A DNA stretch of 60,220 nucleotides, the filler included, from Hausera hauseri (taxonomy: Eukaryota): NCBI GenBank assembly GCA_046269625.1. It is 10 parts of 10 records of this genome, joined end to end, with 100 filler letters (N's around TTAATTAATTAA, not from the genome) between each part and the next. Parts side by side here need not be neighbours in the genome. Positions count along the whole stretch, not along the records: positions 20,752 to 32,351 come from JBJURY010085546.1; 9 more parts are not named here. One strand, written 5' to 3'. The notes beneath the pieces are model-generated. The model was given only the letters and a program-made list of their open reading frames with translations, ran no database searches and had not been told where the DNA came from. A program made the translations under genes and the position numbers. Shown one piece after another: positions 14,394 through 38,466 of this stretch. Position 1 is the stretch's first letter, and each line of letters begins with the position of its first letter.

Positions 14394-14431
14394 ATCTCGA
14401 TGATGATGATGATGATGAAGCCGTTTGTTTA

Positions 14432-17982: not shown

Positions 17983-18480
17983 ATGTTAGCTAATATTAAA
18001 ACTATCGCGGACATGGTACCGAGTGTGACATTAATATACTACCTTTTAAACAATGGAAGTCGAGACAATATGTACTCAAGTATCCACCTGATTTTGCATG
18101 CATCATATTTCAATAGGGAAAGTGTCATATTATGGGTTGTCGCAAACCAGTCACAGCTGACAACAGTAACAGTAAACTACTACCATTCGGAACTGTCATT
18201 GACAAAATCCAATCAATAACGGTAACGATTTAGGTAGACTACCACCAAACAATCAATCTGTACAAATTAGCAATGTCCACTGCTGAATGTACATATTAAC
18301 CCGAACTTTTTCCTGCATTGATACTGACCTCGTTTCGCCCACTCTGTGTCAATGTGTTCAGCAGTGGAAAAATTGTTGTACTCGGTATTCGGACAGTGGA
18401 CTATGAACAGATTATTAATCAAACTAAAAACCACATAAATATTTTACTGAATCAAAATAATATACATTGCACAGCAACAA
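17983..18480 (+). pseudogene. TATA-binding protein (TBP)-like
   Basis: Two repeats by hand translation: 'IIFQ*GKCHIMGCRK' and 'Y*PELFPALIL..VNVFSSGKIVVLG', compared with TBP 'YEPELFPGLI..IFVSGKVVLTG'. Confidence 0.75.
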
Positions 18481-18524
18481 CAAACTATAAATACCATTCC
18501 CATGCACATTCAGAAATTACTACC

Positions 18525-18890
18525 ATGGAAGACGACGACAACGACCAAAAAATTCTACTCAATGATGCCAATGATGAAAGTTCAGATTGGTCGTGGTTGT
18601 TTGGCTACAAAAAGGATAATTCTACTGTCAAAATGCTGGAACCACCTGTCCGACAATTAGGAAAACCGGGTGATTGTCTGCAGGTCAATTGTCTGGAAAT
18701 GAAACAGGAACTTGCTCAGAAAGCAGCAGCAGCAGCAAAACCGACGTTAAAAAGGGAAAATGCAATGATTGAAATACGTAAACGAAAATCAAAACCGTCG
18801 GCATGCCAAACAGATATTTTTACCGAAACGAATTTTTCGCAAGTACGAAATGCATTTTCTGCAAACACACGTACTGATTTCATTGAATGA
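18525..18890 (+). CDS. Polinton hypothetical protein
   Basis: Acidic N-terminus and a basic NLS-like 'RKRKSK'. No family recognised. Confidence 0.4.
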   Translation: MEDDDNDQKILLNDANDESSDWSWLFGYKKDNSTVKMLEPPVRQLGKPGDCLQVNCLEMKQELAQKAAAAAKPTLKRENAMIEIRKRKSKPSACQTDIFTETNFSQVRNAFSANTRTDFIE

Positions 18891-19290
18891 TCCCCTGTCT
18901 CTATGTGCACTCAAGTACAGCTATCGTGTAAAATGGCTTTCGGGTTAAAATTGCTTTCCATCAATTAAACGTAGATTTAAAGTTAAACAAAACGACCGTG
19001 CAAAAGCAATCTGTCGATTTACCAGCTCTGAAAACGAAACTGTTTGATTTTATTGGTCGCGGAATGTTTCATGTACCCGATGGCGATGATGGTTTAAAGT
19101 GTCCACTGAATACTGAATTGCAAGGATACAAGTAAAAAGCCGGTATCGAAAGCCCGATCTGGTGTGTAGTTGAATTACATTTTAATTATCAATAAATTTT
19201 GTTGTTTTACCGTTCTTCTTCTTCTTCTTTCATTAACCCAATTAACTAGTATAAATATACGTGTAATTTTAAAAAATATGCATAAGAATA

Positions 19291-19760
19291 ATGATAATGA
19301 ATGACATAAAGATTATCTTAACAGACGAAAACGCCTTTGTACCAAGACATGTTACATCAAACAGTGCAGGCTACAATGTGTTTTCCAATGTCAATACGAC
19401 AAATCCAGACAGCACAATCAAATGCATAACGACTGAGATTCGATTGGCGATTTCACCCGGTTACTACGGCCAACTTTTATCAAAAAGCGGATTGGCAAAG
19501 CTCGGACTGACAGTTGTGGGCGGCGGCGTCACTGATTCAGACTTTGGAGTTGAAATTAAGGTGTTGCTGGAAAACCAATCCGGGGAACCGTATGCTTTTT
19601 AGAAAGGCAGTGCAATCGCACAAATCGTTTTTCATCGCTGTGAAAAGGCGGAATTCAGTGTAATGTCACCGGAACAATGGGGACTGTTTTGTGTCAATGA
19701 ATCAACACGAAATGAACGCAAAGAATTCGGCTTTGGTGATATGGACAAAACCACCTGTTT
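19291..19760 (+). pseudogene. dut: trimeric dUTPase (premature stop at 19600-19602)
   Basis: Motifs 'SAGYNV', 'LSKSGLA', 'GVTDSDFG', then 'IAQIV' and 'R..EFGFG' in frame after the stop. Confidence 0.9.
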
Positions 19761-19839
19761 AATGATTGTGATGATAATAATAATAGTTAGTTGTTTTGTT
19801 TGTGTTACAAACAAAAAATGATTTTGTACATGATAAGTA

Positions 19840-20335
19840 ATGGCGACAGGATTTATAGATATTGAAGCTTTCCAATATGATAATGCCCGGCGCATAATAA
19901 AAGAATTATGCATTATGGACGTCGGTAACATTTTCAAACCGCTTGTGTACATATTCAAGCCCGGTGTTGTGTAGAAATGCATGACGGAAAAGACGAAATT
20001 TACAAACGGATTTCTCTTTCGACATCGTCATAAACTTCATTGGTACGAAGACGATTCAATTTTCTGTGTGCCGTGTGTTATGGGAGAGATTTGGGATCGT
20101 TTTGACACTGAATATACAATATTTTAAATTAAAGATCAAATTGACGGATAAAAGTTTACACATCTCCATTCACAGTTTCCCGAATTGCGAAGAATGACGT
20201 ATTCAACAATATCGAACAGCTCGCTGGCGATGGTATCTGACAATATGAGATGTCCGTATCGTGATCATGGACCTCAATTTGCTTACAAAAAATGTCTACG
20301 GCTTTGTATTGACTATATTCCATGCAAATAAGTAA
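19840..20335 (+). pseudogene. DEDD-family 3'-5' exonuclease-like Polinton accessory gene
   Basis: Hand translation 'MATGFIDIEAFQY..IIKELCI..YIFKP..N.FL..HRHKLHWY', with in-frame stops. Confidence 0.7.
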
Positions 20336-20864
20336 ATGTATTTCTATGTTATTTCTCTGTTCAAAACTTAAATTCAGATAGGTTATAATAAAAATAATCA
20401 TGGGCTATAATGGAAATTGTACACGTTTATTACAAATGACTTCAGTAACATGGCAGTAATTTGTACATTGCAATATGATAATACTCACGAAGTAAATGTC
20501 TATTGTTTACAATGAAAACAAACCAGTATGAACAAAATTTATATAAATATTGATGCAAATTTATTTCACATTTTTCTTCTTTAAACAATGTCTTTGGAAA
20601 ACAATTCAGGAGGTGACAGTTCCGTGAGACTCACAAAAGAATCAAAGTACANNNNNNNNNNNNNNNNNNNNNNNNNNNNNNNNNNNNNNNNNNNNTTAAT
20701 TAATTAANNNNNNNNNNNNNNNNNNNNNNNNNNNNNNNNNNNNNNNNNNNNACGCAATGGTGTTATTTCAGATCGGCATAAAGTCCGAGAATCATATAAA
20801 TGGTATGATGTCCAAAGTTTATTAACAACTCGACGGGGGTTCCGAGAAATTTGTCCCAAATTGA

Positions 20865-22301
20865 TCACTGGTCCAACATGATAGGCATGTGGACATATTT
20901 GCCTGTGGATTTGGATTTGTACCGTATGGCATCTGGCTCGTATATCTCGTCATCCAATACCAGGGTTTCATCCACCTGGATTTTACGTTTACTTCCACTT
21001 TGTGTTATCGTGGGTGTTTTTCGCACCGTATCGGAGGCCGTTCTTTGTATAATATATTCATCAGACCATTTTAATTGTTTGTATATTGATTGATAGCACT
21101 GCGCTAAGGCAGTGCTTCGGAGAGAGAAACCCTTTGTGTCGTAAAACTTCCGGGCAAGTTCTTTGAAGGTACTAGAGGACAATTGGTACCGGCGGATAAC
21201 TTCTTCGTGATATAAGATATCACGAACTCCAGCTATCCGTCGGATGGGACATTTGAGATGGTTAACAACCATCTCTACTACGTCGGCTCCGATGATCACT
21301 TTGTCCGTTAGTATTTCCGTTACCCTTCGATAAAAATCCATGGGATCGAGCTGGTTATTGATACTGGATTCGGTAAGGCCTGTTATGTGTGTATCAAAAT
21401 TATTGATACGCTGTCTTGGTGTAATGATGCCATAGAATAAGGTATCTCCGTTTAACGTTAGAATCGAGGCTTCGATAGGTTGAAGCTGATTCCACTGGTC
21501 ATAGGCCAGATTCACGGCTGCTATGACCAGATCTTTATCTGTTACTTTTTCCAGTCTTCTATAAGGAATGTTCTTATATTTTACATAGTCGGGTTCTGGA
21601 AGATGAAAACACTTTCCTTCAGGTAGGCTGGGGTACAATTTTTCTCGTTTAATAACTTCCATAGCTAATATTACTCGATTTGTACACGAGCGGATTTTGA
21701 ATATATTGTTTTGGAGGAAGGTATAATCGAACGCCAATGCATGTTCGTGCTCCATATTAATTAAATCGCCTCTAATGGATGTTTTCCTGTCTGTGGTCTT
21801 TATCTGAATCTGACCTACCACGCTGTATAGGTTCATTGAATGAAACCGTTCTGGTAGAATAATGATATCTTCCAAGAGAAACGATGTAGGCTTTGTGAGT
21901 TGTATTATAGCGAAAGACCGATTAGCCATACTGTATCCTTTTATATTGTTAGGAATTTGTGGCGTCTGGGGATAATTTAAACTCGTCATGTTATCGTTAT
22001 GCGATATGAAATATTGATTGGAAGGATTAGCATTGATCATATGATTTTTGACGTTGCTGAACCAGTGTTTGGAGCGGTTGATTGTCTGTATCTGGTGGAA
22101 CGTCGTAACTGATACTGTAAAAATAAGAGTCAAGACATAATTTATCACAATACTTAAATACAATACAACGGTTATCACATAAGCCAGGGGGGTAATCGTT
22201 GTAGTTTCATTATTATTATTTCTATCGCATAAGATAACTTTATGTCTTTTAGTTATCTTTTTATTTGGGGTTGCGTCTATTGCAATCCCTAAGAATAATT
22301 G
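20865..22301 (-). CDS. in-frame readthrough extension: hydrophobic segment plus ISG20/REX4-like exonuclease fold
   Basis: 41 stop-free codons link the TGA at 22302-22304 to ORF 20865-22178. Exonuclease-like core 'EASILTLNGDTLFYGIITPRQRINNFDTHITGL..VTEILTDKVIIGAD..RDI..FKELARKF'. Confidence 0.75.
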   Translation of the reverse strand, partial: QLFLGIAIDATPNKKITKRHKVILCDRNNNNETTTITPLAYVITVVLYLSIVINYVLTLIFTVSVTTFHQIQTINRSKHWFSNVKNHMINANPSNQYFISHNDNMTSLNYPQTPQIPNNIKGYSMANRSFAIIQLTKPTSFLLEDIIILPERFHSMNLYSVVGQIQIKTTDRKTSIRGDLINMEHEHALAFDYTFLQNNIFKIRSCTNRVILAMEVIKREKLYPSLPEGKCFHLPEPDYVKYKNIPYRRLEKVTDKDLVIAAVNLAYDQWNQLQPIEASILTLNGDTLFYGIITPRQRINNFDTHITGLTESSINNQLDPMDFYRRVTEILTDKVIIGADVVEMVVNHLKCPIRRIAGVRDILYHEEVIRRYQLSSSTFKELARKFYDTKGFSLRSTALAQCYQSIYKQLKWSDEYIIQRTASDTVRKTPTITQSGSKRKIQVDETLVLDDEIYEPDAIRYKSKSTGKYVHMPIMLDQ

Positions 22302-23690
22302 TCAGCTGGGGTTGTCGATATCCAACGGGTTCGTTAGATTCCGCATGTCAATTCTAACCCAGCTCCTGTTTCGTTTGAGTCGCCTACATGCGAATCTACT
22401 TACTATTATTACTATGATTATCAATACTACAGGGGTTATGGTTCCTATGCATATTATTTCTAACCGCGAATACTTATACGCTGTTCGTGGAGGTTTAAGT
22501 GTTATCTTATGAGTAATCGTCTTGGTCCTATTACGTACAGTTATGTCATACTTTATTTTCGTTATCGCTGTCATTATCTTAGTGGAGGTTACTCTATCTG
22601 TATCGTCTAGCAATTGTAAAATTATTGTGTATTGGGTGTTCGAGTCTAGAGCTGCACATGGTGCTACCAAATCATCCGGGGTTATTATTCCTTTAGCGAC
22701 CACTATTTCTTGTTTCTTACAAGAGAATTTAATCTTGACAAAATCTAGGTCCGGTCTGACTGAGATGATTAATGCAGATGGGGCTGCTATTATAGTGACG
22801 TTCTCCCATATAGATCGTTTCGCCCGATAATAAGATGAGTAAGGCTTAACTAATATAGTCATTTCTCTTTTATCAGTCGAGGGCTGTTCAGAAGATACTA
22901 TATTCTTTTCGGGCATATCGTTGTATTCTTTAGGGTTTTTATATCGTATATACATAGTCGGTCCTTTTCTATGCATCTTATTCCTTAATTTTCCGTATTC
23001 CTTTCGTGACAAGGTGTACTTTACTTCGTATATTCTACCTCTTGTTACATTACAGCAGACCTGTTGTTGTTCTTCTGTTATCTCGCATTTCAACGATGGC
23101 TGTTCTTTTCCTGTGTCTTTTATGGATATTGTTATCCATCGGATATATTCTAATTCTATCAAGCTCCTAATTTCTAGACAACTTCGTCCACTTTTAAATC
23201 CCATTGGTCTTATCTTCACCTGTTTAAGTATTATTTCATCGAGCAATGTATTATTCATTTCTTGTCTATGCGGGACTCGCATGTATTTATGGAACTTAGT
23301 ATATAAACTATGATAAAAATCTCCTTGTTTCCTTATGAGTGTAAGATGCACTTCGTGTGTTCCTGAGGTGTGGATGGGGCATATTCTTTCGTTTATCGAT
23401 GATCGTAATATACAATCATCATTTAACTCACCAGAGTGTTTCTCATAACCGTAGATGGGGATTGTTCGTATTCTTATAATGTACTCGCCAGGCATTCGTC
23501 TTGTGGCATACCAGTGAATACATTTTTGACCTTTCATAGAGTAGGTTATTTGGTATTCTAAACTTTTTAACCATAAATCTTCGTTTATGGCTGCAGCATG
23601 TCGTATCTTCGCTTGTTCAATTTTTTGTTCTGTCATCTGTCCGGCTATTTGAGGTAATACATAAATGATGGTTAACAATAAACTCTTCAT
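22302..23690 (-). other. post-integrase domain: signal-like peptide, Cys-containing FN3-like ectodomain, TM helix, short tail
   Basis: 'MKSLLLTIIYVLPQIAG', tyrosine-corner-like 'LDSNTQYTIIL', TM 'IICIGTITPVVLIIIVIIV' followed by 'SRFACRRLKR'. Confidence 0.65.
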
Positions 23691-26600
23691 TGCCCCGTAC
23701 CTCTTATAGGTAGATTTTTCCGTTCTTACTTTTTCCTTTATGCTTAATATCCTTTCTTTTTCATTCCTTAACTCACTTTCTCGGGCTGCTGGTTTACATC
23801 TGTTGATATGGACCTTCACCGATGTATTATTTTTCTTTAAACATATATTTGGTAAACTTACTTTCTCTACTTCATACGGGCCTTTGTAAGGTCTATCCAG
23901 TTTAGAGGTTTTACCCTTTTTTATAGCTGGGGAATATAACATAACTTGATCACCTATTTTGATTTTTGGCTGTTTAGTCTTCTTATCGTAGTATTTCTTG
24001 TATTTGGATTTATACTCCTCTTGATTTCCACAAATCGTTTTGTAGGCTAATTGGAGACGTTCTTGCATTAGTTGTTTATAGTCCTCCACTTCCATTAAAT
24101 GTGAGACAGGTCTCACATTAAAGTCTAAGTCAATGGGTAATCTTGCGTCTCGTAAGTACATTAAATAAAAGGGAGTTTCCTTAGTGGCTTCATGTACTGA
24201 CGTTCGGTTTACGAATACACACGCATTGACATACTCGTCCCAGTCGTCCTGTCTGGTGTTTACTACTGTTTGCAGTTTTCCTTTTAAATCTCCAATATAT
24301 CTCTCAACTAATCCATTGTTTTCTGGGTGTCCTGGTGTGGAACGTAGCTTCAATATCTTTAAAATGTCATAAATTGACTGCATTACAGTTCCCGTTAGAT
24401 TTGAGGCCTGGTCAGTTAAAATAATTCTTGGGGCTCCGTAATTAAACACTACATTTTCCACAAATTTTTCAGCGATTGTGTCGGCCTTCATATCTGCCAT
24501 CGGTATGGCTACAACCCATTTAGTAAAGTAGTCAATAAAGACTAAGATATATCGGTTCCCATTCCGAGTTAATGGTAGTGGTCCCGTTATGTCCATTGCC
24601 GTAAATTCAAATGGTGCCGGGGGATTATCCCATACCTTTAATGGTGCTTTAAATTTGGATCCGGTGTTTTTTCGTGTGGCACATAACTTACAACTTTCAC
24701 ACCACTCTTGTACATCCTTCATCATAGTAGGCCAGAAATACTTTCGTTTTAATTTATTGAACGTCTTCCTGGGTGACTGGTGTCCACCGAGCAATCCATC
24801 ATGATATTGTGTTAACAGTACTGGTCTATTTTTCTTTGGGATTACTAACGCTGGTCCGTCTTGGTGAATATAGTATAAAAATCCATCTTTTTCCTCATAT
24901 GCCTCACCAAATCGTGCTAAGTGTCTGGCTAATTCGTTATCTTCTGGTAATACCTTATTCCTTATGAAATTTCTAATTATTTTTATTTCGAAGTCTTCCT
25001 GTTGGTTCTGTTTAATCTTTTCTACTGATCCATCCATACTCCATACTGCTGCTATTACTTCTTTCTTTACCTTTGGGTTTTCTGTCATTCTGGATAGATA
25101 GTCCGCATTGGCATTTCTCGTTCCAGGTTTATACTGGAAATTCAACGTGTACGGTTGTAGTTTCAGCGCCCATCGTAACAATCGGCTATTCGGATTTTCA
25201 TGTTGCTTCAACCACTGTAATGGTCGATGATCCGTATATATTATTAGTGGTTTATTTTCACTAATATAGGGTGAAAATATTTCTAAGGCGAATATTACAG
25301 CTAGCAGTTCCTTCTCAATCACGGCATATTTCTTTTGATGCTTGTTGAGTTTTCGTGAGGCATAGGCTACTGGGTGTTCCTTACCATCGTCACCCTTTTG
25401 TGATAGCACTGCTCCGACTCCATAATCGCTTGCGTCTGTGGCCAATATGAATGGTTTGTTCATATCTGGGTAGATTAATATTGGGGCAGTTACTAGTCTT
25501 TCCTTCAAGTATTGGAATGCTTTTTGACAATCGGTCGTCCAAACTACTGTATCTAGGTCCTCACGTAATAACTCATATAGAGGCTTTGCAATTTTACTAA
25601 AATCCTTTATAAACCTCCGATAATAATTTGCTAAACCTAAGAATCGACGTAGTTCTCTAACCGTTGTCGGTTTTGGGAAGTCTTTTATTTTTCCTAATAA
25701 TTTATCCTGTGGTTTCACACCATATCTGTCTACTCTATGGCCTAGAAAATCTACTTCTGCCTGAGCAAAGGAACATTTCTTCGAATTTATTTTCAGACCC
25801 ATGATCTCACACCTATCAAACAGGTCTTGCAGATCTTTCAAATGTTGTTGAAAATTGGGTGATGCTATTATTACATCATCAATGTATACCATGGCATGTG
25901 GGGCGTCCAATAATAGCAGTTCCGTACCTCTCTGAAATGTTGGTGGTCCATTCTTTAGCCCAAATGGCATCCTGTTAAATTCCCATAGTCCTTCTCCAAT
26001 GGAGAAGGCTGTCTTGGGTTTATCTTCCTCCTTTACTTCTACTTGCCAATAGCCTTTTTGCAAATCTATTGTTGAGAATATAGTTGATCCGTGAAGTCTA
26101 TCTAATATCTCATCAATCCTGGGCAAGGGATACGTATCCGTTTCAGTGATCTCGTTTAATGCTCGGTAGTCTATGCAAAATCTCATAGTTCCGTCCTTTT
26201 TCTTGACCATTACTACCGGGGCTGTCCAAGGGGAACAACTTGGTCGGATTATTTTGTTTTCCCTCATTTCCTTTATTATTTTTCGCGCTTCTTGTTTTTT
26301 ATCGTACGCTAATCGATATGGTCTCTTTTTGATTGGATTGTCCTGTCCTTTTTTCAATTTAATAGTATGTTGTATCACATTCATTGTACCTAAATCGTAG
26401 TCATTCTGCGCGAACCGGGCATTATTTTTTTGTAATAATTCTATTAGCGTCTTCTTTTCTTCTTGTGTTAAAATTTGACAATTATGTAACTTCTCGTGCC
26501 AATTAATATTAGTTGTTTTAATCTTCTTTAATTTTTCACTCGGTTCTCCTTTTAACTTTTCTTTCATTAATTTTTCTATTTTATCTATGTCAGACATTGT

Positions 26601-29600
26601 TGAGTTTGTTTCTTGTTTCACTATCCCTTCACTGGTTATAACTTCGCCCAGTCTTGTGTTCTTTCGTAGTCTTCTTTCTCTATTGGTCGTATTACAAATT
26701 CGTAAATGAATTTTTCCTTCTCTTACTTTGTCTACATGAGGCGCTATTAAAATTTCATATTTTTCCATCACTTGTGCAAAGGGTTCAAAGCACACCTCTG
26801 TTGATAGTATTGAACTTTCTATCTTTCCAGGCACTATTATTTCGGATCGGGGTGGTATTATGATATCTTTTGTTAACGCTACCTTTCCTCTACTTTTGTC
26901 TTCGTCAAACATTTTCAATTGGCTGGTTTTCACATCTATATACACATTTTCTAATTGGCTTAATACGTCACACCCGATTAAGATTTCGTTCGTTAAATTA
27001 TCGGCTATTCTTATCATATGTTTCACGATTTGATTGCCGATTTTAATATTTGCGTCAAGAACCATTTTTATTTCTTCTTCCGTACCAAACGCTCCTACAT
27101 TTATTAACGTAGTCTTTGGTCTCCGTAACTTCCTTTTCAATTCCTTAGGTAGTAGGCTTTTTCCCATTATCGTGGTGGTGGATCCAGTATCTAATAGAGC
27201 TATCATGGGATATCCGTTCACTTCGATTTCTATTTCTGGCCTTATAGATGACCTTTCTTCTTTGTCGTCGGTCTTATACGTAGGTTCATGTCTATATAAT
27301 CTTACGCCTTCTTCGAAGTCTTGTCGCATTTGTAATACTTGATCTGTTGGATACAATCCTGCATGCACTACGTATCTAGGAGCTGAAGGATTCGCTATAA
27401 GTTGTTCATTATATGGTTGTCCATGATACTCGTCTATAGGATCTAAATGCGGTAGATCGGTCACGAGCTTGTGTCTGTATTTCGATTTTCGTGTCTTTAA
27501 CATTATTTGTCTAATATTAGGTATTCTTTTATGTTCTGTCTTTGTCCTTCCTTGATCATAGTGGGTGTCATCATTATCAGGTATGCTATACACAGATTCT
27601 TTATTATCTCTCTTCTGTAATACTTTCTTCTTCCATCGTGCATCGTGATTCGCTAAGAAGCAACTTGCTACAGCTGGTATCACTGCTATCAGTATTTTCC
27701 ATGAACACCCTACTGCTGCGTGTATTCCATATGCTTTACCGAGGGCCGTAAATATTGTTCGTAGCGCGCTAATAATGAAATATATGGCCAGAAAACCCGA
27801 CGCTGCTTGTCCAAAATATAAGAACTTTCCCCACATCTTCTCCATGACATTTCTTGTTACTTTCTTCAAATAATCTTTACCCATAAGGTTTTCCCATTGT
27901 GGTGATCCTTCGCCGTCCCACATGACTCTCCGAGTCAGTTCGGTTATTACTCGTTGTCTTTGTTGTGGGAATAGTAACATTCGTCGGTAATCCTCTAAGT
28001 TTTGTTGGGTATATATTCCTCCTTGTGATATTTCTGTCAATGGCTCGAATTTCTGGTTTCTTTGGAGGTTAATCAAACTCAGTGTCTCTGGTTTAGACAC
28101 TGGTTCTCTTTTCGGCATCCTTATCCATTTGTCATTATCGATTTTAAACATTGGTGACATACTAAAAGTGCAGTTATATAAGGGAGTGGGCTTTACATGT
28201 GCATCAAGGAGTATCCTCGTTACTGGCATGACATATCGCGTTTCTGACTGGTAGACAACAGGTAATTCCATTATACATTCTTCCGTAGGTCTGATTGATA
28301 CTTCCACTTTCTTACATTCTATAGTTATTAAGACCTCGCCCATCACTCGTCCGATAACTCCGTCGCCAAAAGGTAATACTGGCGCTACCATGTCCGGATT
28401 CGTTATCACCAACGCCATTTTATTACGCATTATTTCGTAATTTAACTTGCATTCATTCATTATTATTTCTCGGTATAAACCTCTGATCTCTTTCCTTACG
28501 TAGTTGATCAGGAAATCTATTTTATTGTCAAAATATTGAGTCAGCTTTATGTCTTTCTTATCTACTTTAGTCTTCGCTCCTATTATTTCCTTTCTTGATA
28601 GGTAGATGCCCTTATAATTAGTCTTTGACATTTCTTCATTACATTTAGTTATCACACCCGTAATTTTAAATCGCATCATTTCTTCTGGATTCTCTGAATA
28701 GACAATTGTAGCTACTTCATTCATCTTAACTTCCTTTGTTCCCTCTTTATACGTTGCCGTCTCTTTTTCTGCTGTCTTCCCTACCGTCTTATTAAACTTT
28801 CCTTCTTTCAACAATGTCAACTGACATTTGCTTGCGGTTGTTTCCCAAGTCATTTTTGACTCTCCCGTATCGCATTCACCATTATCGTATTCACATTCGT
28901 TCATCGTTGTCATCAATTTTGTTTGAGAATCGAATAATCCTTCGTATTCTTTTAACTGTACCTGATAATCTTCTATGGCCACTGTTCTAGGTGCGATAGT
29001 GCCTCCAACGTCATAATCCACTCCTCTACAGGTTCCCTCCATTGTCTTATCTATCCGTCCGGCTCTAAAAACCCTCGTGTATTTTACTCTGTTTCTTACT
29101 GCCGGTATATGTGCATTCTGTATGGTTATAATGCCAATCTTAAAGGCATCCTGGCATTCTGCTCGGGATATTATTATCGGCTCGAAGGGTGTTGTAGGTT
29201 CAATTATGGCTGAATTTCCTGAGTAATATGCACAATTAAATAAGAAGAATGATTTCTTTACATAGCATTCTCTAATCTTTGTTTTTATAAATTCGGACTC
29301 TTGATATACCCAGTACGCAAGGCCGCTGGTGGTTGTCAGTTGTTCTGGGTCGGCTTCTGGACATTTTTCTAAATCAACCAACGAATACTTTTGTCCTTCT
29401 CTGGGTTTGGAACAGTCATATGCTATAATTCCTACGGCTTTTGGCAACAACAATGAGGTGATTAACAGAATTTGTATGATTTCCATTATTGACATGCCCG
29501 TTATACCTGTCCGAGGCATCGTTGCTTGTGTCCCCGTTGATCTATCTCTTCCTCGTTCTTCCGTCCTGGTTATGTTCGTCATCAGACTATTGAGCCATCC

Positions 29601-32045
29601 ACCTCTGCATTGAGCCCAATTTCCTAAAGTATCCTTTAAAATCTTCACGACTGTTTTTATATTCCGTTCTATTTCTTCCAGGTTTTGTGTCTGATGATTG
29701 ATTACTATTATTTTATATAGTAAATAAGATATAGCCGTTTGGACCTTTTCCCGCGTAATGCCTGTGGCGAACATCTTTTCCAAAATATCTAATTCGTGCA
29801 GCTCGTTTATCCTTTCCTCTTCTAAATTTTCGTAAAATTGTCTGCTTATTCTCAACACATTATTACGTAGTGTATTAAATACTTCTTCCGGAATCGTTGC
29901 CTGGGTATCAAAAGAGGCAAATGATGTGTGCATCCTTGCCAGTAACGTTCTTAATAAGGAATCTATGTCTACCGATTCAGGATTACCATCTGTTCCTGCT
30001 AATAATAAACGCCTTACTATTTCTTCGTTCCTATCTTTCCTGTTGCGAATATCGCTTATTTTCGTTCCTCTTGGCCTGCCTCTTCTCTTTGCTTCATTTT
30101 GAACCGTTGTATCTCGCATATCGCACATGGGATTTTCCACCTCCCGTGGTTCCGTTCGTCTTATAATTTCTTCCACCGTTGCTTGTGCTCTCGCCTCAGG
30201 GTGTATTTCAATTATGTTTATCGGATTATAATTTTCACTTCTACACCCGATTCTCAATAATCGGTCATAACTGTACAAAGTCCTTCCATAATAACTTAGT
30301 CCATAATGGTTATCTTGATAAAATGGTTCTAGCTCTTCTATCTTATTTCGTAACGTTAATATATCGTCTATTTCGTTCAGTCGGATAATCCTTATATCTT
30401 GATTCCCTTCTTTTATTGTTATTCTAAGAGGTTCATTTCTTCCTTTCCTTTCCTCTGCAGCTTCGGCTAATACCGTCCTAGCTATTTCTTTTACCGGACT
30501 AGTATCATGGGCGAGTAGTACTAATTGCGGTAACATCTCGTTCAATTTTTCCGTCGTCATTTTACTTGTGATGGTTTTTAGTATTGTCACGGTTGTTTTA
30601 TCTACGTCGACTATATTATTAGGGTCAATGGCTAACACGGCTTCTATAATATCGTCTTCCTCGTCCAAGTCTACTCCTGGATTTCTTATTACTTGATCCA
30701 ATACGGTATCATCAAAAATGGGCGTGGCCTGTGTTTCTTCCGGACTAAATGAGGGTAAGGGAGTACTGGGACTACTCTTTTTTCTTCCCCTTTTCTTTTC
30801 TTTTACTATCTCTTCCCTCTCTGTTGACGTTTCTCTTGATTCAATTTCTTCATCAATTATTTTTTTGTTACCTTTCTTTTTTCCTTTGCGAAGGGCCTGT
30901 TTCTCCAATGGGTCACCTACCATGTAGGTATTACTTTCTTTCAACCTCTGCTGTTGTCTCTTATATTCTTTTACTTCTATTTCTAACTGTTTCTTCATGC
31001 ATGGGGATAATGAATTACTTATATAATTAATACTTTCTTTCTTCTTGTCTTTCTTTTCAATTTCTCGTTCACTGGCACTATCCTCCGTCTCGTATTCTCT
31101 ATCGGACGATTCATCTGATGTGGCGGATACATTATCTTTTTTTTGCTTATTCTTCTTTAGTTTTAAAGAGTCCTTTTGACGCGACCTGCATGATTTTGCT
31201 ATGTGTCCATACTTATTACAATTGAAACATTTTAATCTTCCTTCGGAGTCTATACTGGGTAATGATCTTCCATCTTTCTTATATTTCTTTTTGTAACTTG
31301 TTTTTTCTCCGTTATTTCGTAAATTAAATCTTACTTTCTTTTCTCCATCTGATTCAGCTTCTGTTGCTGACGTTTGTGACGGACTTCTATTCCTTTCATA
31401 TCGTTGGTACTTCTGCGTACTATTGTTTCTTCCTTTATCGTTCCCATTATTACTATTTCTGGCTTTGTTCCATCTATATAGTTCTGCATCCCTTTCAGCT
31501 TTTCGTGCTTTTCTTATTGCTTCTTGAAACGTTGGCGGGTCTGCTTGAGAGATTATCATTCGCAGTCTTTCCTCTAGTCCATATTGGAACTGGGCTAACA
31601 GGGCGTTATTCCGTATCGTAACGTCTGGGTAGGCTCTTGCTGCAAGTTTTTCCAATGCACATACAAAGTCCTGGACGGATTCATCTTTTCGTTGCCTTCG
31701 TCTTATAAATTCTTCAATTCGTCCCTTTCCAGAGGGATCTATCAAAAACTTCTGAGGCAGCTTTTCTTTTATATCCTTCCATTCTTTCTTTTCCTCTTCA
31801 GGCAGTTGGAAATAAACCATGAGAGCCGTTCCTTTCAAATGAAGGGGTAACCGTTCTACTCTCTGCTTATCGTCCCAGCCAAAACTTTTGGAATACACCT
31901 CGTATTCCATCATAAAATCTTGAATATCTTCTTTGCCAGAGAACTTTTTCATGGGGAGGGTGAAATCAGCTTTTGACTGAATCACCTGTTCTACTTTATT
32001 ACTTGTCATCGTTTCTTCTTCGCTTAGGTTGTCAAGATATTCCAA
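22302..32045 (-). CDS. 3247-aa Gag-Env(glycoprotein)-Pol-membrane protein polyprotein
   Basis: Gag with CCHC knuckle (31188-31229), signal peptide plus AYDC glycoprotein, PR 'LLDTGS' (27183-27191), RT 'YIDD' (25875-25886), RH 'TDAS/EKE/TDH/ADYLSR', IN HHCC plus D,D,E and 'GPY', C-terminal TM. Confidence 0.97.
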   Translation of the reverse strand: MEYLDNLSEEETMTSNKVEQVIQSKADFTLPMKKFSGKEDIQDFMMEYEVYSKSFGWDDKQRVERLPLHLKGTALMVYFQLPEEEKKEWKDIKEKLPQKFLIDPSGKGRIEEFIRRRQRKDESVQDFVCALEKLAARAYPDVTIRNNALLAQFQYGLEERLRMIISQADPPTFQEAIRKARKAERDAELYRWNKARNSNNGNDKGRNNSTQKYQRYERNRSPSQTSATEAESDGEKKVRFNLRNNGEKTSYKKKYKKDGRSLPSIDSEGRLKCFNCNKYGHIAKSCRSRQKDSLKLKKNKQKKDNVSATSDESSDREYETEDSASEREIEKKDKKKESINYISNSLSPCMKKQLEIEVKEYKRQQQRLKESNTYMVGDPLEKQALRKGKKKGNKKIIDEEIESRETSTEREEIVKEKKRGRKKSSPSTPLPSFSPEETQATPIFDDTVLDQVIRNPGVDLDEEDDIIEAVLAIDPNNIVDVDKTTVTILKTITSKMTTEKLNEMLPQLVLLAHDTSPVKEIARTVLAEAAEERKGRNEPLRITIKEGNQDIRIIRLNEIDDILTLRNKIEELEPFYQDNHYGLSYYGRTLYSYDRLLRIGCRSENYNPINIIEIHPEARAQATVEEIIRRTEPREVENPMCDMRDTTVQNEAKRRGRPRGTKISDIRNRKDRNEEIVRRLLLAGTDGNPESVDIDSLLRTLLARMHTSFASFDTQATIPEEVFNTLRNNVLRISRQFYENLEEERINELHELDILEKMFATGITREKVQTAISYLLYKIIVINHQTQNLEEIERNIKTVVKILKDTLGNWAQCRGGWLNSLMTNITRTEERGRDRSTGTQATMPRTGITGMSIMEIIQILLITSLLLPKAVGIIAYDCSKPREGQKYSLVDLEKCPEADPEQLTTTSGLAYWVYQESEFIKTKIRECYVKKSFFLFNCAYYSGNSAIIEPTTPFEPIIISRAECQDAFKIGIITIQNAHIPAVRNRVKYTRVFRAGRIDKTMEGTCRGVDYDVGGTIAPRTVAIEDYQVQLKEYEGLFDSQTKLMTTMNECEYDNGECDTGESKMTWETTASKCQLTLLKEGKFNKTVGKTAEKETATYKEGTKEVKMNEVATIVYSENPEEMMRFKITGVITKCNEEMSKTNYKGIYLSRKEIIGAKTKVDKKDIKLTQYFDNKIDFLINYVRKEIRGLYREIIMNECKLNYEIMRNKMALVITNPDMVAPVLPFGDGVIGRVMGEVLITIECKKVEVSIRPTEECIMELPVVYQSETRYVMPVTRILLDAHVKPTPLYNCTFSMSPMFKIDNDKWIRMPKREPVSKPETLSLINLQRNQKFEPLTEISQGGIYTQQNLEDYRRMLLFPQQRQRVITELTRRVMWDGEGSPQWENLMGKDYLKKVTRNVMEKMWGKFLYFGQAASGFLAIYFIISALRTIFTALGKAYGIHAAVGCSWKILIAVIPAVASCFLANHDARWKKKVLQKRDNKESVYSIPDNDDTHYDQGRTKTEHKRIPNIRQIMLKTRKSKYRHKLVTDLPHLDPIDEYHGQPYNEQLIANPSAPRYVVHAGLYPTDQVLQMRQDFEEGVRLYRHEPTYKTDDKEERSSIRPEIEIEVNGYPMIALLDTGSTTTIMGKSLLPKELKRKLRRPKTTLINVGAFGTEEEIKMVLDANIKIGNQIVKHMIRIADNLTNEILIGCDVLSQLENVYIDVKTSQLKMFDEDKSRGKVALTKDIIIPPRSEIIVPGKIESSILSTEVCFEPFAQVMEKYEILIAPHVDKVREGKIHLRICNTTNRERRLRKNTRLGEVITSEGIVKQETNSTMSDIDKIEKLMKEKLKGEPSEKLKKIKTTNINWHEKLHNCQILTQEEKKTLIELLQKNNARFAQNDYDLGTMNVIQHTIKLKKGQDNPIKKRPYRLAYDKKQEARKIIKEMRENKIIRPSCSPWTAPVVMVKKKDGTMRFCIDYRALNEITETDTYPLPRIDEILDRLHGSTIFSTIDLQKGYWQVEVKEEDKPKTAFSIGEGLWEFNRMPFGLKNGPPTFQRGTELLLLDAPHAMVYIDDVIIASPNFQQHLKDLQDLFDRCEIMGLKINSKKCSFAQAEVDFLGHRVDRYGVKPQDKLLGKIKDFPKPTTVRELRRFLGLANYYRRFIKDFSKIAKPLYELLREDLDTVVWTTDCQKAFQYLKERLVTAPILIYPDMNKPFILATDASDYGVGAVLSQKGDDGKEHPVAYASRKLNKHQKKYAVIEKELLAVIFALEIFSPYISENKPLIIYTDHRPLQWLKQHENPNSRLLRWALKLQPYTLNFQYKPGTRNANADYLSRMTENPKVKKEVIAAVWSMDGSVEKIKQNQQEDFEIKIIRNFIRNKVLPEDNELARHLARFGEAYEEKDGFLYYIHQDGPALVIPKKNRPVLLTQYHDGLLGGHQSPRKTFNKLKRKYFWPTMMKDVQEWCESCKLCATRKNTGSKFKAPLKVWDNPPAPFEFTAMDITGPLPLTRNGNRYILVFIDYFTKWVVAIPMADMKADTIAEKFVENVVFNYGAPRIILTDQASNLTGTVMQSIYDILKILKLRSTPGHPENNGLVERYIGDLKGKLQTVVNTRQDDWDEYVNACVFVNRTSVHEATKETPFYLMYLRDARLPIDLDFNVRPVSHLMEVEDYKQLMQERLQLAYKTICGNQEEYKSKYKKYYDKKTKQPKIKIGDQVMLYSPAIKKGKTSKLDRPYKGPYEVEKVSLPNICLKKNNTSVKVHINRCKPAARESELRNEKERILSIKEKVRTEKSTYKRYGAMKSLLLTIIYVLPQIAGQMTEQKIEQAKIRHAAAINEDLWLKSLEYQITYSMKGQKCIHWYATRRMPGEYIIRIRTIPIYGYEKHSGELNDDCILRSSINERICPIHTSGTHEVHLTLIRKQGDFYHSLYTKFHKYMRVPHRQEMNNTLLDEIILKQVKIRPMGFKSGRSCLEIRSLIELEYIRWITISIKDTGKEQPSLKCEITEEQQQVCCNVTRGRIYEVKYTLSRKEYGKLRNKMHRKGPTMYIRYKNPKEYNDMPEKNIVSSEQPSTDKREMTILVKPYSSYYRAKRSIWENVTIIAAPSALIISVRPDLDFVKIKFSCKKQEIVVAKGIITPDDLVAPCAALDSNTQYTIILQLLDDTDRVTSTKIMTAITKIKYDITVRNRTKTITHKITLKPPRTAYKYSRLEIICIGTITPVVLIIIVIIVSRFACRRLKRNRSWVRIDMRNLTNPLDIDNPS
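23790..27250 (-). other. pol: Pol region: protease, dUTPase-fold-like spacer, RT, RNase H, integrase
   Basis: All catalytic motifs are present, in Ty3/Gypsy order. Confidence 0.97.
27650..29495 (-). other. env: chuvirus-like (class III) envelope glycoprotein domain
   Basis: Internal signal 'MEIIQILLITSLLLPKAVG', mature start 'IIAYDC..YSLVDLEKC', Cys-rich ~550-aa ectodomain with 'GEVL..C..VEV..C..ELPV', 'PVTRIL', and a C-terminal 'WGKF..FG..SGFLAIYFII..AYGIH..VGCSWKIL' matching my recollection of chuvirus-type G. Confidence 0.8.
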
Positions 32046-32140
32046 TCCAAAAGGTATATTTTCTTCTTTTTGGTATATTGTCCCTTTTCTGGTAGTTATT
32101 TTGTTTCTGTTTATCTATAGGTCCTAACAAATTTATAGTG

Positions 32141-32159
32141 TTCCCGGGTCACGGCACCA
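32141..32159 (-). promoter_or_regulatory. primer binding site, tRNA-His
   Basis: Minus-strand TGGTGCCGTGACCCGGGAA is complementary to the tRNA-His 3' end (...GUCACGGCACCA), 3 nt after ...AACA. Confidence 0.9.
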
Positions 32160-32162
32160 GTT

Positions 32163-32351
32163 TGTTCAATTTTTCCTTTGTGATAAATTATTATAATGAA
32201 AATAAAGATATAATATTTTTTTATCTCTTTGAACAATTTAAGCGTGGAGGTTGGGAGAGCAACTATGAGGTGTATCTTACCTAAACAAGTACGTAATGTG
32301 TTTCAAGGAACGTGAATGACGTTAGACAATTCGTTATTTACTTAAGGATTA
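32163..32351 (-). repeat. 5' LTR, partial (U5 end)
   Basis: Ends in AACA just before the PBS. Cut by the linker. Confidence 0.8.
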
Positions 32352-32614
32352 NNNNNNNNNNNNNNNNNNNNNNNNNNNNNNNNNNNNNNNNNNNNTTAAT
32401 TAATTAANNNNNNNNNNNNNNNNNNNNNNNNNNNNNNNNNNNNNNNNNNNNTATTACTCGGTGGAGAATGATAATTTGGCGAGTTATTGATTGTTTTTCC
32501 TGCACAAAGTGGGTCAATACTTGATATGGGACTTAATTAAGACAGATAAGTGGTCATGTGGGCCTGATTATTGCTTGTAAAGTTTATAAATATCACGCAT
32601 GCACGGACGACAAC

Positions 32615-32697
32615 AAAAGGCTGATTTAATTTACAAGGTTTTGTTTATTTACGTTAAAAGGCGGATTTAATTTACAATGGTTTTGTTTATTTACGTT
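32615..32697. repeat. two-copy ~41-bp tandem repeat containing minus-strand AATAAA
   Basis: aaaaggctgatttaatttacaaggttttgtttatttacgtt / aaaaggcggatttaatttacaatggttttgtttatttacgtt, just downstream of the minus-strand gene block. Confidence 0.8.
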
Positions 32698-33029
32698 AAA
32701 CATTTTTACAAAGCTATTCGATTTTAAGTTTTCTGCGTTGTTTCTTTATCGGTTTCTGTAAAGGTTCGACTCCCATGGCGGCATTGTTGTAAGGCGTTGG
32801 TAACTGTTCAAGTGATGTACTGTGTGCTGTCTGATCATGTACAAAGTTCTGTAAATAACCGTTTGGTAGCGGGTTTTGCGTCGACTCGTCATACCCGGGT
32901 GAAAAGGTCTGTATAGGAGCACTTTGCATGGCAATGGACTTTTCATAAAACGGTAAAAGTTCTGTAATGGCTCAGTGTCAATGAATGACATAAGGTTCGG
33001 CAGAGGCTTGGTTTGTGTGGTGGCCATGC

Positions 33030-33315
33030 TGGATAATGAGTATCATTCTGGAATGTCTTTTGGAACCGTTGCTATGTAGTCGATGGCGGATACAATCTCA
33101 CTTTGCGAGGCGATGAGTTGTTCAAATTCTTCATGGGTTAATGAGATTCTTGTTTTTGTTGGGAACTTTTTGTAGCTTTCGCCATAGTATCTTCTAATAT
33201 GCACCAAAACTTAATTTCGATATGAGGAAACCATAAGTAGCATGGTCGGGCCTATTGGTTTTGCCAATGCGGCATCGTTGGTCATGTAAACATTGTTATC
33301 AAACCGCGTAAACAT
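33030..33315 (-). pseudogene. PC4/Sub1-like ssDNA-binding protein
   Basis: Hand translation 'LMVSSYRN*VLVHIRRYY..FPTKTRISLTHEEFEQL'. Confidence 0.7.
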
Positions 33316-33403
33316 TTTGAAACAGAAGGACCCTCTGGTTGTGTGTGAATTGCTTATATACCGTTATAACCGGTTTATGCTGGATGTGTGACGTCATAGA
33401 TAT

Positions 33404-33818
33404 TTATACAAGTAGGGTTTCTCCGCAGTCAAGGTCGGACGAGGCGCCAAACGAGTCTACCGTTGACGTGTTGTCTCGTTGACGAAAAGGACATGAGGAC
33501 GCGTCGCATGAACCCCCTCCGGCTTTGATGATGATGAAATAAATGACGTAGAGTCCACAAGTGTTACTAAAAACTTGTAAGGGTCGCTCGTTGTAGACGA
33601 ATTTACTGTCAGAGTTACGTTTAATAAAATCGTCAATGTCAGCGTGAAATGTGCCGATGCCGTCATAGTACAAGGCTATCCATTCGTATTTATGACAACG
33701 GCCACTGGCTTTGTTGGGTCGATGCGTTTGGGTAATATGTCGTGGGGCATGACTTTGACGGGATGTTGGCAGACGAAAATGTCAGATTTTAAAATTGTTT
33801 GTATCTGTCGAGTGTCAT
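33404..33818 (-). pseudogene. Polinton cysteine protease
   Basis: 'VVINT', 'YYDGIG', 'YNERPLQVFSNTCGLYVIYF'. The catalytic His region is missing. Confidence 0.8.
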
Positions 33819-33825
33819 CTTTATT

Positions 33826-35118
33826 TTATGCCACAAACGCCAGTAACACTTGTCTGGTTTTGGAAATTTCAATTATAGAGTCTTGTTTGGCATACACCAC
33901 GACTTGTAAGGGATCGGGCATCACGGCGGAAAATTTAAACTCTAGCGAAAGATGTCCGTTTTTCAAAAGGCCCCCGTCCAAAAGGCTGGGACTTATATTG
34001 AACGTGGAGAGGGCATAACAATCTTTAAAACTTTTGTAGTCGACATTGCAGCTGGCATCCTTACCGATCAGACCCATAGCTAGATTGGTTCAGAAAAAGG
34101 CTCGAGCGTAATGTTCGCGATCGAAATCTACCATTTACGGCTTCCCCATGGCCGTCCTCCCATCGACGGTGACGTTCAAGTACGTCAAACCAAAATGTTG
34201 AAAGTTGAACCGATTGTTTCTGTAGGTGCCGTTAAAAGCCGAGAAACTTACTATCCCAATCACGACGCGCGTCGGTGTTTGACTGAGGCAAAGATTGTCT
34301 TGAATGTGCGACAACATTCCTCTGGGTATGGACAATGTCTTTATCGCGACTCGTTTGATGGGGTATTTCGCGTTCACTGTAGTCAATGCTTTTTCGTGGG
34401 CCAGAGAAATGGCCGGATTTAATTAGGTTTTCCTGACCAGCAGGACGGTGCACGTTATAATTGATTTATAACCGAGCACAGGATCGTCGGCTATGAAGTT
34501 GAACGAGTCTTTTGAAGGGTTGAGTTTGATCTTTACGTCCACAGTTCAGCATGTAACGACCTTGGGTGAAGATGTCGCAGTGTAACTTTCCCATCATATC
34601 CACTTCTCGACTACCCGCAACCAACTCCCGACGCGTTTTTAGTACCACGTTAGAATCGGCTTTAGCTTCATCGAGAAATTTTGGCGTGTCGCTGTAGTAT
34701 AGAACTTCCGTCAGGGACCCATTTTGGCTTCCCGACCGTAATTGAAAACGGATTCGAGGTAACATCTGCAAGGGTAAGTGTTTTCGCTCGCCATGATCAA
34801 CGTGTCCTTCAGGGCGACGTCCACTTGTGAAAAGAAACTGTGCAGATAATTGTTGACCGGGGCCACTTCAGCACCATCAGGTAAATTGTTGCCGTTGGCC
34901 AAAGCAACTTTGGCTCTCACGTGTACAAAGGTATTAAACAAATCTAGACACTCTTTGCCGCTTCCTGATATTACAAATTCTATGGGTACCCCGGGAGCGA
35001 GAGAAGCGAGAGGGTGAATTTCAACAAACAGTCCTTCCTCTACCGCCGTTTGTGTTGGAGGAGCGCTAACAAATCAAAACCTGAATGGAGGCATTCGCTC
35101 GGGGTGTATCAAAGCCAT
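33826..35118 (-). pseudogene. Polinton major capsid protein, frameshifted
   Basis: 'PPTQTAVEEG..IHP..PIEF', 'APVNNYLHSFFSQVDV', 'LHCDIFTQGRYMLN', 'AKYPIKRV', 'FNFQHF'. Confidence 0.92.
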
Positions 35119-35139
35119 GTCCTTTAATCAAAGATGTCT

Positions 35140-35578
35140 AAATGCTTCCTTCCTCGTCGTTTCGTGGACTTGTTGTAAGAACTGCTCTGGGTGACAGTCG
35201 TTTTTATTCTATTATTAACGAGTTCGCCTGGCAGCATGGCTTTTCTTTTACGATGCATGCCACCACCCGATTAGTTGCCGGTTACCTGATTCATGGCGCC
35301 TTGCAACAGTCTCTTTGGCTCGATCTCGGAAGGATTCGCCGACGTTTCTACCAGTTAACGCGTCCTGGGCCACTTGCAAACCCGTCCCTGATTAAAGCTT
35401 TGCCACCTATCTTTAACAATAGGAGGATCATTCGACCCAAATCGCTAAAGAAACTACCGATGCCTCTTCCGCATTGACTTCTGCCTCTGACAAAAATGGG
35501 AGTTCCATCTCCTGCTTGACTGCGGTAAAAATCTTTGTAAACTTTGGCGCTTTGATGTAAAGGAGTGTGCCCGACCAT
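35140..35578 (-). pseudogene. Polinton core-like protein (QxGxGIG motif)
   Basis: 'YRSQAGDG.P.F.RG.SQ.GRGIGSFFSDLGR'. Confidence 0.7.
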
Positions 35579-35581
35579 CTT

Positions 35582-35800
35582 TTACTTTATTGAAAATCGG
35601 AATGTCTCCTGGGTCGAAAATGTAACGTCACCACCGAAGAACATTTCATGAATGGGATTTTTTGTCCCAGGTCGCTGGTTAAAAGTATTTCCACAGTGTA
35701 AAAAAAATTGACTCAGCGGCAGGTAGTGGGGTCTGTTGTAAATCCGAAACATGGAGGTCAAATTTCTATCCAAAATGGGCACCGTTCGTTACAAAGGCAC
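35582..35800 (-). pseudogene. Polinton minor capsid C-terminal remnant
   Basis: 'VPL*RTVPI..YNRPHYLPL', then a 'TLHFR'-type end after a frameshift. Confidence 0.7.
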
Positions 35801-38466
35801 CACAAATCGGATATTGACCAAGATTCACATGTCTTTTCGTGTAGCAACTGTGGCAAGATTTGGCACGTCCACCGCGATTTGATGCGACATGAAGAGACTT
35901 GTAATGGAGGCAAACCTGTCAATGTATATAAAGGGGGTGTTTACAACCCACCCGAGACTATTTTGGAGAAAATTGCTCTGCTCGGGACATCAGTTAACAC
36001 ACACAATGTGTACCTATATAGAGCAACTTTAGATTTCGTGACATATTTTCAAAAGACAGTCTTGCCTCCAGAGGCTAGTGCGACAAAATTTGTCACAAAG
36101 CGCGTCCCGTTATCCTGCTGTATAGCCTCTAACGTGCATGGAATGAAGGAACCCGTTTGCTTCGTTACAAACGGAAACCCTCAATCCTTGGTCAATGATT
36201 TAATCGACCACCTCGAAGAAATATCAGAGGCGGCTTTTAAACTGTGAAAAAGAATTTGAGGATGCGATTAAAGCCTTAGGCAAATTAGAAGATAGCACAC
36301 TTCTAGGTAAGCTGATGTATTACTTGGGTCAGTTCTCAGTCATTGGATTTAACTCGGAAACATATGACATTAATGTAATTAAACTCTACCTAATAAACGC
36401 ACTTGCCGCTGAATGCGATGCAAAAGCCGCTATAGGAGGCAGTCGAGAAGAAGAGAAGGCTTCTGCCAAACCTCAAAATTTCATTACAATAATAACTTTA
36501 TGTGCTTTTCCACCCCAATGTTGAAATTTTTAGACATTTGCAATTATTTATCGCCTGGTTTCAGTTATAGCAAGTATCTAGCCGCCTACAAAATAAAGGA
36601 AAGTAAGGGATATTTTTGTTACGAGTATCTAGATGATTTAGAAAAATTAAAAGAAACTAGTCTTCCTCCCCATTCTGCGTTTTTCTCGTCCCTTAAAAAT
36701 AGTAATATTTCAGATTCAAAATATGAATATTGTCAAGAAATTTGGGCCGGAAACCACATGAAAACGCTTCAAGATTTTCACATTTGGTATAACAATAAGG
36801 ATATAGTGCTCTTTCTAGACCCGTTAGAAAAACAGGTTGAATACTATTCTAATTTGGGCGTCGATATTTTTCGTGATGCAATATCGGTCCCTGGCGTAAC
36901 TTTAAAGTACCTTTTCAAAACTAAACCTTCTGATGTAGCTTTTGTTTATATTTGAAACGCGAAAAGTAACTGCATCAAGTGATTACGGACAATATAGTCA
37001 GTGGTCCATCAATTTTTTTCCATCGGTACCATGAAAAGGGTGAAATGTTTATTAGGGGGGATTAGTTAGTTCAGTCTAATGTAATTTCTATGACACGAAC
37101 GCGCTTTATCTTTGGGCTTTAATACAGGACATGCCGACTGACTTTGCTATAGTTAGGAATAGGGAAGACGGGTTTAAAATGCATAAAGTGAATTATTATA
37201 CGAGACATAGTCGCGAATGGTTGGCTTGGGTAGAGCACGAGAAAGGAATAACTTTAAAAACTCAATATAACGGTAAGGAAATGGTTTTAGGTCACTTTGT
37301 ATGATAGGGTAGACGGGTGGGATAAAAATTCGCTGACCGCATATCAATTCCATAGTTGTGTTTTCCACGGGCATCTACATTTTTCCGTCACCAAAGGTAA
37401 GATCATTAATCCAATCAGTAAGATACATTTGGCCAAGTTGTATAAGAAAACTCTGAAAATTCGCGAGCGATTATCTAAACTCGCTGAAGTCGTGGAGATT
37501 TAGGAATGTGAGTGGAAAGCTCTGAAAAAGTCAAATCCAGCAAAAATGTTTTTTCTGAAAACTACGCCATTCGGGGCGCGATCCACGTTCCTGAAATTCT
37601 GAAAGCTATACAGGATCAGAAATGATTTGGTTTAGTAGAGTGTGACATCCACGTCCCCGAAGAATTAACGGATCATTTCTCTGAAATGACTCAGATATTT
37701 AAAAACATTAATGTCTCTAGAGCCGACATAGGGAACTTTATGCGTGAATCTCAATCTCAATCATGGGCTACAACTCACAAACGTGTACCGGGTCATCGAG
37801 TATCATCCGATGGCTTGTTTCAAAGAGTTTGGTGACAGTGTCTCTGATGCTCGGCGCAAGGGAGATCTTGATGACGTATACGCCATGACTAGTGATATGA
37901 TGAAATTGTTGGGGAATGCCGCTTAAGGCACAACTCTAACCAACATATCCAAACACTCTGACGTATCTTACTGTGAGGGTGATGACACTACCGGTTAATA
38001 GTCCCCTATTTAAAAAGATGATAGAAATTAGTAAGGATCTTTTTGAAATAGAAATGCGTAATTTCCCGTTACAAATGGAGGTTTTCGTGTTTCAATATGC
38101 CACGTTGAGAATGCTAGAATTTTATTATGATTTTATAGAAAATATGTAGATAGATCAGACTTTCAACTATGTGAAATTGATCCTAGCAGAGGTAGTCAAA
38201 CCAGAAATGAGAACAGAATTTTTTAGCGTTTACGACAAGTGGTTTACCGCAGAAGTCTGTGATGCGCATAAGTCCAAATTTATTACGGTGAGGGAAAGGC
38301 TGGGGTAGATTGTCAAAGTTGTAAAGATAGGAAGTTATTTGATAAGAGAACCCCGGGTCTCTTCAAATTAGAATATGCGGGTGAAGGGATGGTATCCCTT
38401 TGCAGTAAAACGTACCATTGATACGGGAGTTACAATAAAACCAGCGCAAAAGGTGTAATAAAATAA
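35800..38466 (+). pseudogene. polB: protein-primed family B DNA polymerase with Vsr-like insertion, 5'-truncated
   Basis: 'VIGFNSETYD', 'KGYFCYEY', 'YNNKD', 'YDTNALY', insertion 'VDGW..YQFHSCVFHGH..I*ECEW', 'KLLGNA', 'TPGLFKLE', 'LCSKTY', 'AKGV'. Confidence 0.92.

Follow-up and report, generated by a model that had tools for sequence, protein, structure and literature searches.

The closest described counterparts of the element reported here are the planarian Burro/GYPSM1 elements, giant gypsy elements of Dugesiidae (PMC6431247, after Jurka 2007 and Grohme et al. 2018), in which an env lies in frame between gag and pol and is preceded by ubiquitin-like and BCL-2 domains (Arkhipova & Yushenova 2019, PMC6431247). 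The Burro Env matches mononegavirus fusion glycoproteins (PMC6431247). GAG-ENV-POL elements with a gB-type Env are also known from Nematoda, Bryozoa, and Platyhelminthes, and their env has been argued to be ancient (Chary & Hayashi 2026, PMC13524379); in the Pol tree these elements are not monophyletic (PMC13524379). As far as its available main text goes, the latter study contains no mention of ubiquitin, exonuclease, fibronectin, polyprotein, or Burro. Non-canonical nematode metaviruses (Sacco et al. 2022, as cited in PMC13524379) likewise place Env, a gB-type glycoprotein, before Pol.

The window analyzed here, 60,220 nucleotides in length, consists of small contigs of Hausera hauseri joined by N spacers. 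The element takes up one of these contigs, 11,600 bp long (20752-32351). It occupies the minus strand as one stop-free frame (Table 1), while the plus-strand reading at the same span is closed, with stops throughout. An initial annotation of this DNA had reported an ORF of 3247 aa; the single uninterrupted frame stands, although the proposed start (32045) is a TTG codon and the first ATG gives 3235 aa. The order of Pfam domains along ORF1 (a weak capsid, CCHC, Monjiviricetes_fusion, protease, RT, RNase H, and integrase) confirms the gag-env-pol arrangement in one frame. The frame does not end with the integrase; it continues for about 460 aa and includes a strong transmembrane-like segment. 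Judged from its sequence, the element is a Ty3/gypsy LTR retroelement whose env is read in one frame with the gag before it and the pol after it, and very probably a compact member of the planarian Burro-like GAG-ENV-POL lineage. The assignment to that lineage is based on the shared architecture and a by-eye match of Env, not on an RT tree. A description of this layout, with its ubiquitin-like and Bcl-2 cargo, has been in print since 2019 (PMC6431247), and the finding opens no new class.

Table 1. Features of the element and its flanks, in order of transcription on the minus strand (positions count along the window)
Feature	Position	Residues	Strand	Basis or remark
Likely 3' end of 5' LTR, 192 nt	32160..32351		-	directly before PBS; contig end; putative LTR
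tRNA-His primer binding site (PBS)	32148..32159		-	12/12 complement of the His_GUG 12-mer (PMC13524379, supplementary file 1)
ORF1	22302..32114		-	3270 codons stop to stop; ATG 32009
Gag capsid	31473..31952	55-214	-	Pfam Ty3_capsid E 3.4e-4, below cut-off; 52% identity with P0004 Gag
Single CCHC zinc knuckle	31185..31232	295-310	-	Pfam zf-CCHC
Ubiquitin-like domain	30204..30422	~565-637	-	profile and weak Pfam
Bcl-2-like domain with BH1- and BH2-like motifs	29580..29942	~725-845	-	PDB, profile, Pfam
Internal signal sequence of Env	29430..29495	874-895	-	hydrophobic peak 2.2
Env, gB/chuvirus-type fusogen homologue	27555..29483	878-1520	-	Pfam Monjiviricetes_fusion PF24664 E 1.3e-89
Env transmembrane anchor	27744..27806	~1437-1457	-	hydropathy, relatives
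Aspartic protease (DTG)	26949..27242	1625-1722	-	Pfam RVP E 2e-8
Possible degenerate dUTPase-like domain, PR-RT interval	26628..26885		-	weak PDB dUTPase matches, E 0.09-0.15, ranked below a chance kinesin match; position as in Burro
Reverse transcriptase and RNase H	25149..26207		-	Pfam RVT_1 aa 1970-2128, RT_RNaseH aa 2217-2322
Integrase (HHCC, D-D(35)-E, C-terminal domain)	23790..24842		-	Pfam Integrase_H2C2 aa 2425-2483, rve aa 2500-2597
Post-integrase extension	22305..23690	2809-3270	-	hydropathy
ORF1 stop, TGA-CAA-TTA (type I readthrough context, as in TMV)	22296..22304		-	motif defined in PMC13517186
ORF2, in frame with ORF1	20865..22301		-	478 codons, behind the TGA-CAA-TTA stop

By the order PR-RT-RH-IN, the Ty3-type RT as best PDB match, and the His PBS, the element is assigned to Ty3/gypsy (Metaviridae). 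The match of its RT to the Ty3 enzyme (E 1e-88) is followed at a distance by the next ones (2e-60 and 1e-44). The claim of intact catalytic motifs and a tRNA-His PBS agrees with the presence of DTG, YIDD, the RNase H D/D residues, HHCC, and D-D(35)-E, and with the exact 12-nt complementarity of the PBS. Beyond the PBS the contig reaches 192 nt further, and beyond ORF2 113 nt. It contains no LTR pair. The putative LTR end has no word of at least 9 nt in common with the ~310 nt at the opposite contig end, nor does a candidate polypurine tract (a purine run of at least 10) occur in the last 1700 nt. The suggestion that the element is young is borne out in part, by its intact frame and by many near-identical records, but there is no LTR pair to date it.

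The interval between the zinc knuckle and Env, initially regarded as ~550 aa of unknown sequence, contains a ubiquitin-like and a Bcl-2-like domain, as indicated by profile, PDB, and Pfam matches. A four-sequence profile of the former matches the ubiquitin-like domains of ubiquilin and RAD23 (best E 7e-4), and the single sequence scores weakly against Pfam ubiquitin (E 0.13; E 0.03 for P0004). With the Bcl-2-like domain as a single query, the top PDB match is BOK (E 0.012). Pfam Bcl-2 is found at E 6e-4, and the best 60 of the 106 matches of a three-sequence profile all belong to the Bcl-2 family (best E 3e-4). This profile detects six of 12 new relatives, none of them used in building it, and Pfam Bcl-2 is reached at E < 1e-3 in three of the 12. 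The E-values for both domains are modest (1e-4 to 1e-2) and are repeated in relatives. P0003 is without the Bcl-2-like part; in a decayed element of the window (47793-55814), there is no match to the Bcl-2 profile, and the ubiquitin-like profile reaches E 0.17 only (54230-53832). An AT-hook-like GRP motif lies between the two domains (ORF1 aa ~675-685) and is common to P0002 and P0004, with weak Pfam scores.

The likeness to Burro runs through one polyprotein of Gag with CCHC, a Ubi2/SUMO-like and a BCL-2-like domain, in-frame Env, PR, RT, RH, and IN (PMC6431247). Between PR and RT, Burro has a dUTPase-like domain (PMC6431247), where the present element has a possible, degenerate one. The two differ in size, with an ORF1 of 3235 aa versus 4873-5140 aa in Burro, and in the number of zinc knuckles, with one versus two or three (PMC6431247). 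Furthermore, none of the BIR, MATH, Smc, and ankyrin domains of Burro (PMC6431247) is found in the element by Pfam at E 0.1. As it misses the size of Burro and the BIR, MATH, and ankyrin domains, the element is filed as Burro-like, not as Burro in the strict sense, and falls in the flatworm GAG-ENV-POL group already described; its host would probably be a planarian. Elsewhere in the window, an ankyrin-repeat ORF (9111-9623, minus strand; Pfam E 3e-6) lies amid fragmented ORFs. Both Burro (PMC6431247) and P0002 have ankyrin cargo.

The resemblance of Env to chuvirus glycoproteins, initially noticed from its two ends, is borne out by the strong Pfam match, and no sequence match to Env is found in PDB. 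All 14 cysteines of the ectodomain are kept in P0002, and all 14 in P0003. A Chuviridae glycoprotein also occurs in BEL/Pao elements that are presumably of the Anakin type. These (Dezordi et al. 2020, as cited in PMC13524379) have the same fusogen family on a BEL/Pao backbone, whereas the RT of the present element is Ty3-like. Among 229 published Env rows (PMC13524379), searches with the Env motifs match one hymenopteran row and the GAG-ENV-POL rows of Schmidtea, six in number. In a comparison by eye, these six have both the motifs and the cysteine spacing of the element, while the 15 nematode C1 Env rows compared do not share the motifs. The corresponding elements, Smed_errantivirus_1-6 (Platyhelminthes GAG-ENV-POL of the HSV/gB type), resemble the present one in their Ty3/gypsy Pol, domain order, gB-type Env, and multicopy nature (PMC13524379); in contrast to the perfect His PBS found here, the published table assigns a PBS to none of the six (PMC13524379).

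A hydrophobic stretch precedes the AYDC start of Env in all four proteins compared (the element and P0002-P0004), and signal cleavage is predicted just before IIAYDC. A second hydrophobic stretch after the anchor (aa 1470-1490) is weak in relatives, in which only the first is strong. The initial idea of a polyprotein threaded through the ER is plausible, with the signal and one strong transmembrane segment conserved in relatives: one signal and one anchor would place Pol back in the cytosol. If the second stretch crossed the membrane, Pol would end up in the lumen, which is a point against this model. Under it, the Gag portion with the ubiquitin-like and Bcl-2-like domains would be made in the cytosol, after which the internal signal might direct Env into the ER lumen, signal peptidase might cut before IIAYDC, and the single strong anchor would bring the chain back to the cytosol, where PR may free PR, RT, and IN. 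The left-over signal, staying on the Gag-derived part, could anchor the Bcl-2-like domain in the membrane by its tail. Such a tail anchor is typical of Bcl-2 proteins. The domain probably weakens or modulates cell death in the host. For reverse transcription, tRNA-His would be the primer, and Env might let particles move between cells. The value of the element lies in being a compact, apparently intact Burro-like example with a clear His PBS, which would ease the study of polyprotein topology, of the roles of the Bcl-2-like and ubiquitin-like cargo, and of movement between cells.

Downstream of the integrase, the polyprotein ends in an extension that opens with a Met and a weakly signal-like stretch. 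A predicted beta-rich ectodomain of ~390 aa comes next, then a segment of strong transmembrane character (aa 3220-3243, Kyte-Doolittle 3.2) and a basic tail. Searches of Pfam, PHROGs, and PDB, together with a homologue search, gave no homologue or family for it, nor any support for the FN3-like motifs that it may contain. Its AlphaFold2 model (mean pLDDT 33.9) is too poor for a fold search. P0014 runs ~590 aa beyond IN, a part that does not match the extension. The extension resembles a membrane protein and is likely an accessory gene, as is ORF2 behind it.

ORF2 is 56% identical to P0005 over 414 aa. Its C-terminal half (~21536-21072) gives a profile match to ISG20L2 (E 0.0022), a DEDDh exonuclease-like domain, in which by eye the first catalytic motif is missing; the domain is likely inactive. 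The AlphaFold2 model of ORF2 (mean pLDDT 32.1) is likewise too poor for a fold search. The DEDDy ORF3 of the rotifer LTR elements Juno and Vesta (PMC5408684) constitutes a precedent for DEDD-type exonuclease cargo; the ORF2 domain, in contrast, is nearer to ISG20L2 (DEDDh) and apparently without catalytic residues. A related ORF (E 3e-5 to 8e-5) is present at 7422-6691 on the minus strand, within 4050-8350 of the window, with its related part at 7245-6916. It lies upstream of a Gag-like start at 4436 and may belong to a further element, as its 3' accessory region beside a new Gag.

Stop readthrough and RNA splicing are about equally likely as the way in which ORF2 would be expressed. Splicing to an acceptor near 22115, with the readthrough-like stop context arising by chance, is itself little short of an even prospect. 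The similarity to P0005 begins only at codon 62 (22118), at a pyrimidine-rich stretch ending in AG, whereas codons 1-61 lack conservation and have a high T and a lower GC content; moreover, the first ATG of ORF2 (codon 89) is not kept in P0005. On the other hand, these 61 codons are open and in frame, and the exact CAR-YYA context follows just 13 of the 6574 stop triplets in the window (0.2%). The two hairpins 3' of the stop (z -2.35), equaled in just 2 of 200 shuffled sequences, also favor readthrough. An in-frame stop separating pol and env is known from SIRE1 (PMC2194720) and provides a precedent; in the present element, the readthrough-type stop follows a membrane-protein-like tail. A membrane protein after IN, a readthrough stop, and an exonuclease-like ORF are not found in the available descriptions of Burro and GAG-ENV-POL elements (PMC6431247, PMC13524379), a blank of little weight, since the original Burro and nematode accounts may include them. 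Only the two tail genes, the extension and ORF2, look undescribed. It is conceivable, though doubtful, that the polyprotein ends in a second, unrelated type I membrane protein, to which TMV-type readthrough adds a membrane-tethered pseudo-exonuclease shielding RNA or cDNA from host sensing. If so, the extension might act beside the gB-type fusogen as its partner in attachment or in immune modulation, and the element would be a retroelement with two glycoproteins and an accessory gene expressed by recoding.

Given that the domain order is real, the main source of Env could nevertheless be a spliced subgenomic RNA, translated from Met874 or Met877, in an intracellular retrotransposon that uses Env for membrane targeting and not for infection. 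Two Met codons do open the signal, and env is a separate ORF in other gypsy elements (PMC6431247). However, Env of relatives is read in one frame with Gag and PR, P0003 and P0004 are without a Met at the start of the signal, and the full retention of the ectodomain cysteines is expected for a folded ectodomain, which leaves this alternative unlikely. The preferred reading remains a Burro-like polyprotein with Env as an internal part.

Among database proteins, P0002, P0003, and P0012 carry Gag-Env-PR in one frame, and P0014 carries Env-PR-RT-RH-IN in one frame; Env identity with these relatives of the same order is 28-37%. No relative was found among metagenome and viral contigs queried with Env and two alignments (A1, A2). 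The layout had been put forward as new, by an independent capture of a chuvirus glycoprotein in a Gypsy element; yet families with this order are already described, both Burro (PMC6431247) and the GAG-ENV-POL elements (PMC13524379). The lack of monophyly of the latter in the Pol tree implies that the order arose more than once (PMC13524379), which favors a separate, undescribed capture. Such an event is nonetheless very unlikely here, and the claim finds no support: the unusual series of ubiquitin-like domain, BCL-2, Env, and PR is common to the element and Burro (PMC6431247), the Env motifs and cysteine spacing are common to it and the Schmidtea elements (PMC13524379), and relatives at just 28-37% Env identity keep the order, which points to an old arrangement. 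In P0002, P0003, P0012, P0013, and P0014, two or three tandem aspartic-protease domains follow Env, where the element has one; P0002 has no in-frame RT and closes with ankyrin repeats. Two decayed elements also lie on other contigs of the window, on the minus strand. One (39151-43437) has an env 44% identical to that of the element, followed by PR-RT-RH-IN with frameshifts and stops; the other, more distant one, mentioned above, combines an env of 29-36% identity with PR-RT-RH-IN.

Logan contigs from four runs reveal a high-copy family, with thousands of records 85-99% alike; runs X3 and X4 contribute small shares, and X1, possibly the source sample, is not independent. Of the best-supported 40 variants among related copies (a selected part of 2147 rows, not a random sample), 30 are synonymous, versus 28% expected, and none is a stop. 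Judged from these variants, many related copies are shown to be under purifying selection. None of the Logan contigs listed spans the whole element, so that near-identical copies may have been pieced together in the intact frame. That the contig joins different elements or copies, a chimeric assembly of the kind the initial annotation had considered, is exceedingly unlikely even for a short contig from so numerous a family, since exact Logan records bridge the Bcl-2 linker, signal, and Env (X2 29214-29730), IN and the extension (X1 23499-23910), and the ORF1 stop and ORF2 (X1 21794-22393, X2 22022-22397), a related, not exact, record bridges the Env tail and PR (X2 27217-27605), other elements share the order, and base composition is even along ORF1. 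An artefact can concern only the reading as one intact copy, not the domain order.

Elsewhere, the window may contain mobile elements of different kinds. ORFs in 1-3949, 13833-20651, 32452-39050, and 55915-60220 resemble Polinton/Maverick genes by eye, with capsid, integrase, and type B DNA polymerase as putative products. The contigs 1-3949 and 13833-20651 have ~320 nt in common, in inverted orientation. Fragments resembling a Tc1/mariner transposase by eye are located at 45500-47200 on the minus strand.
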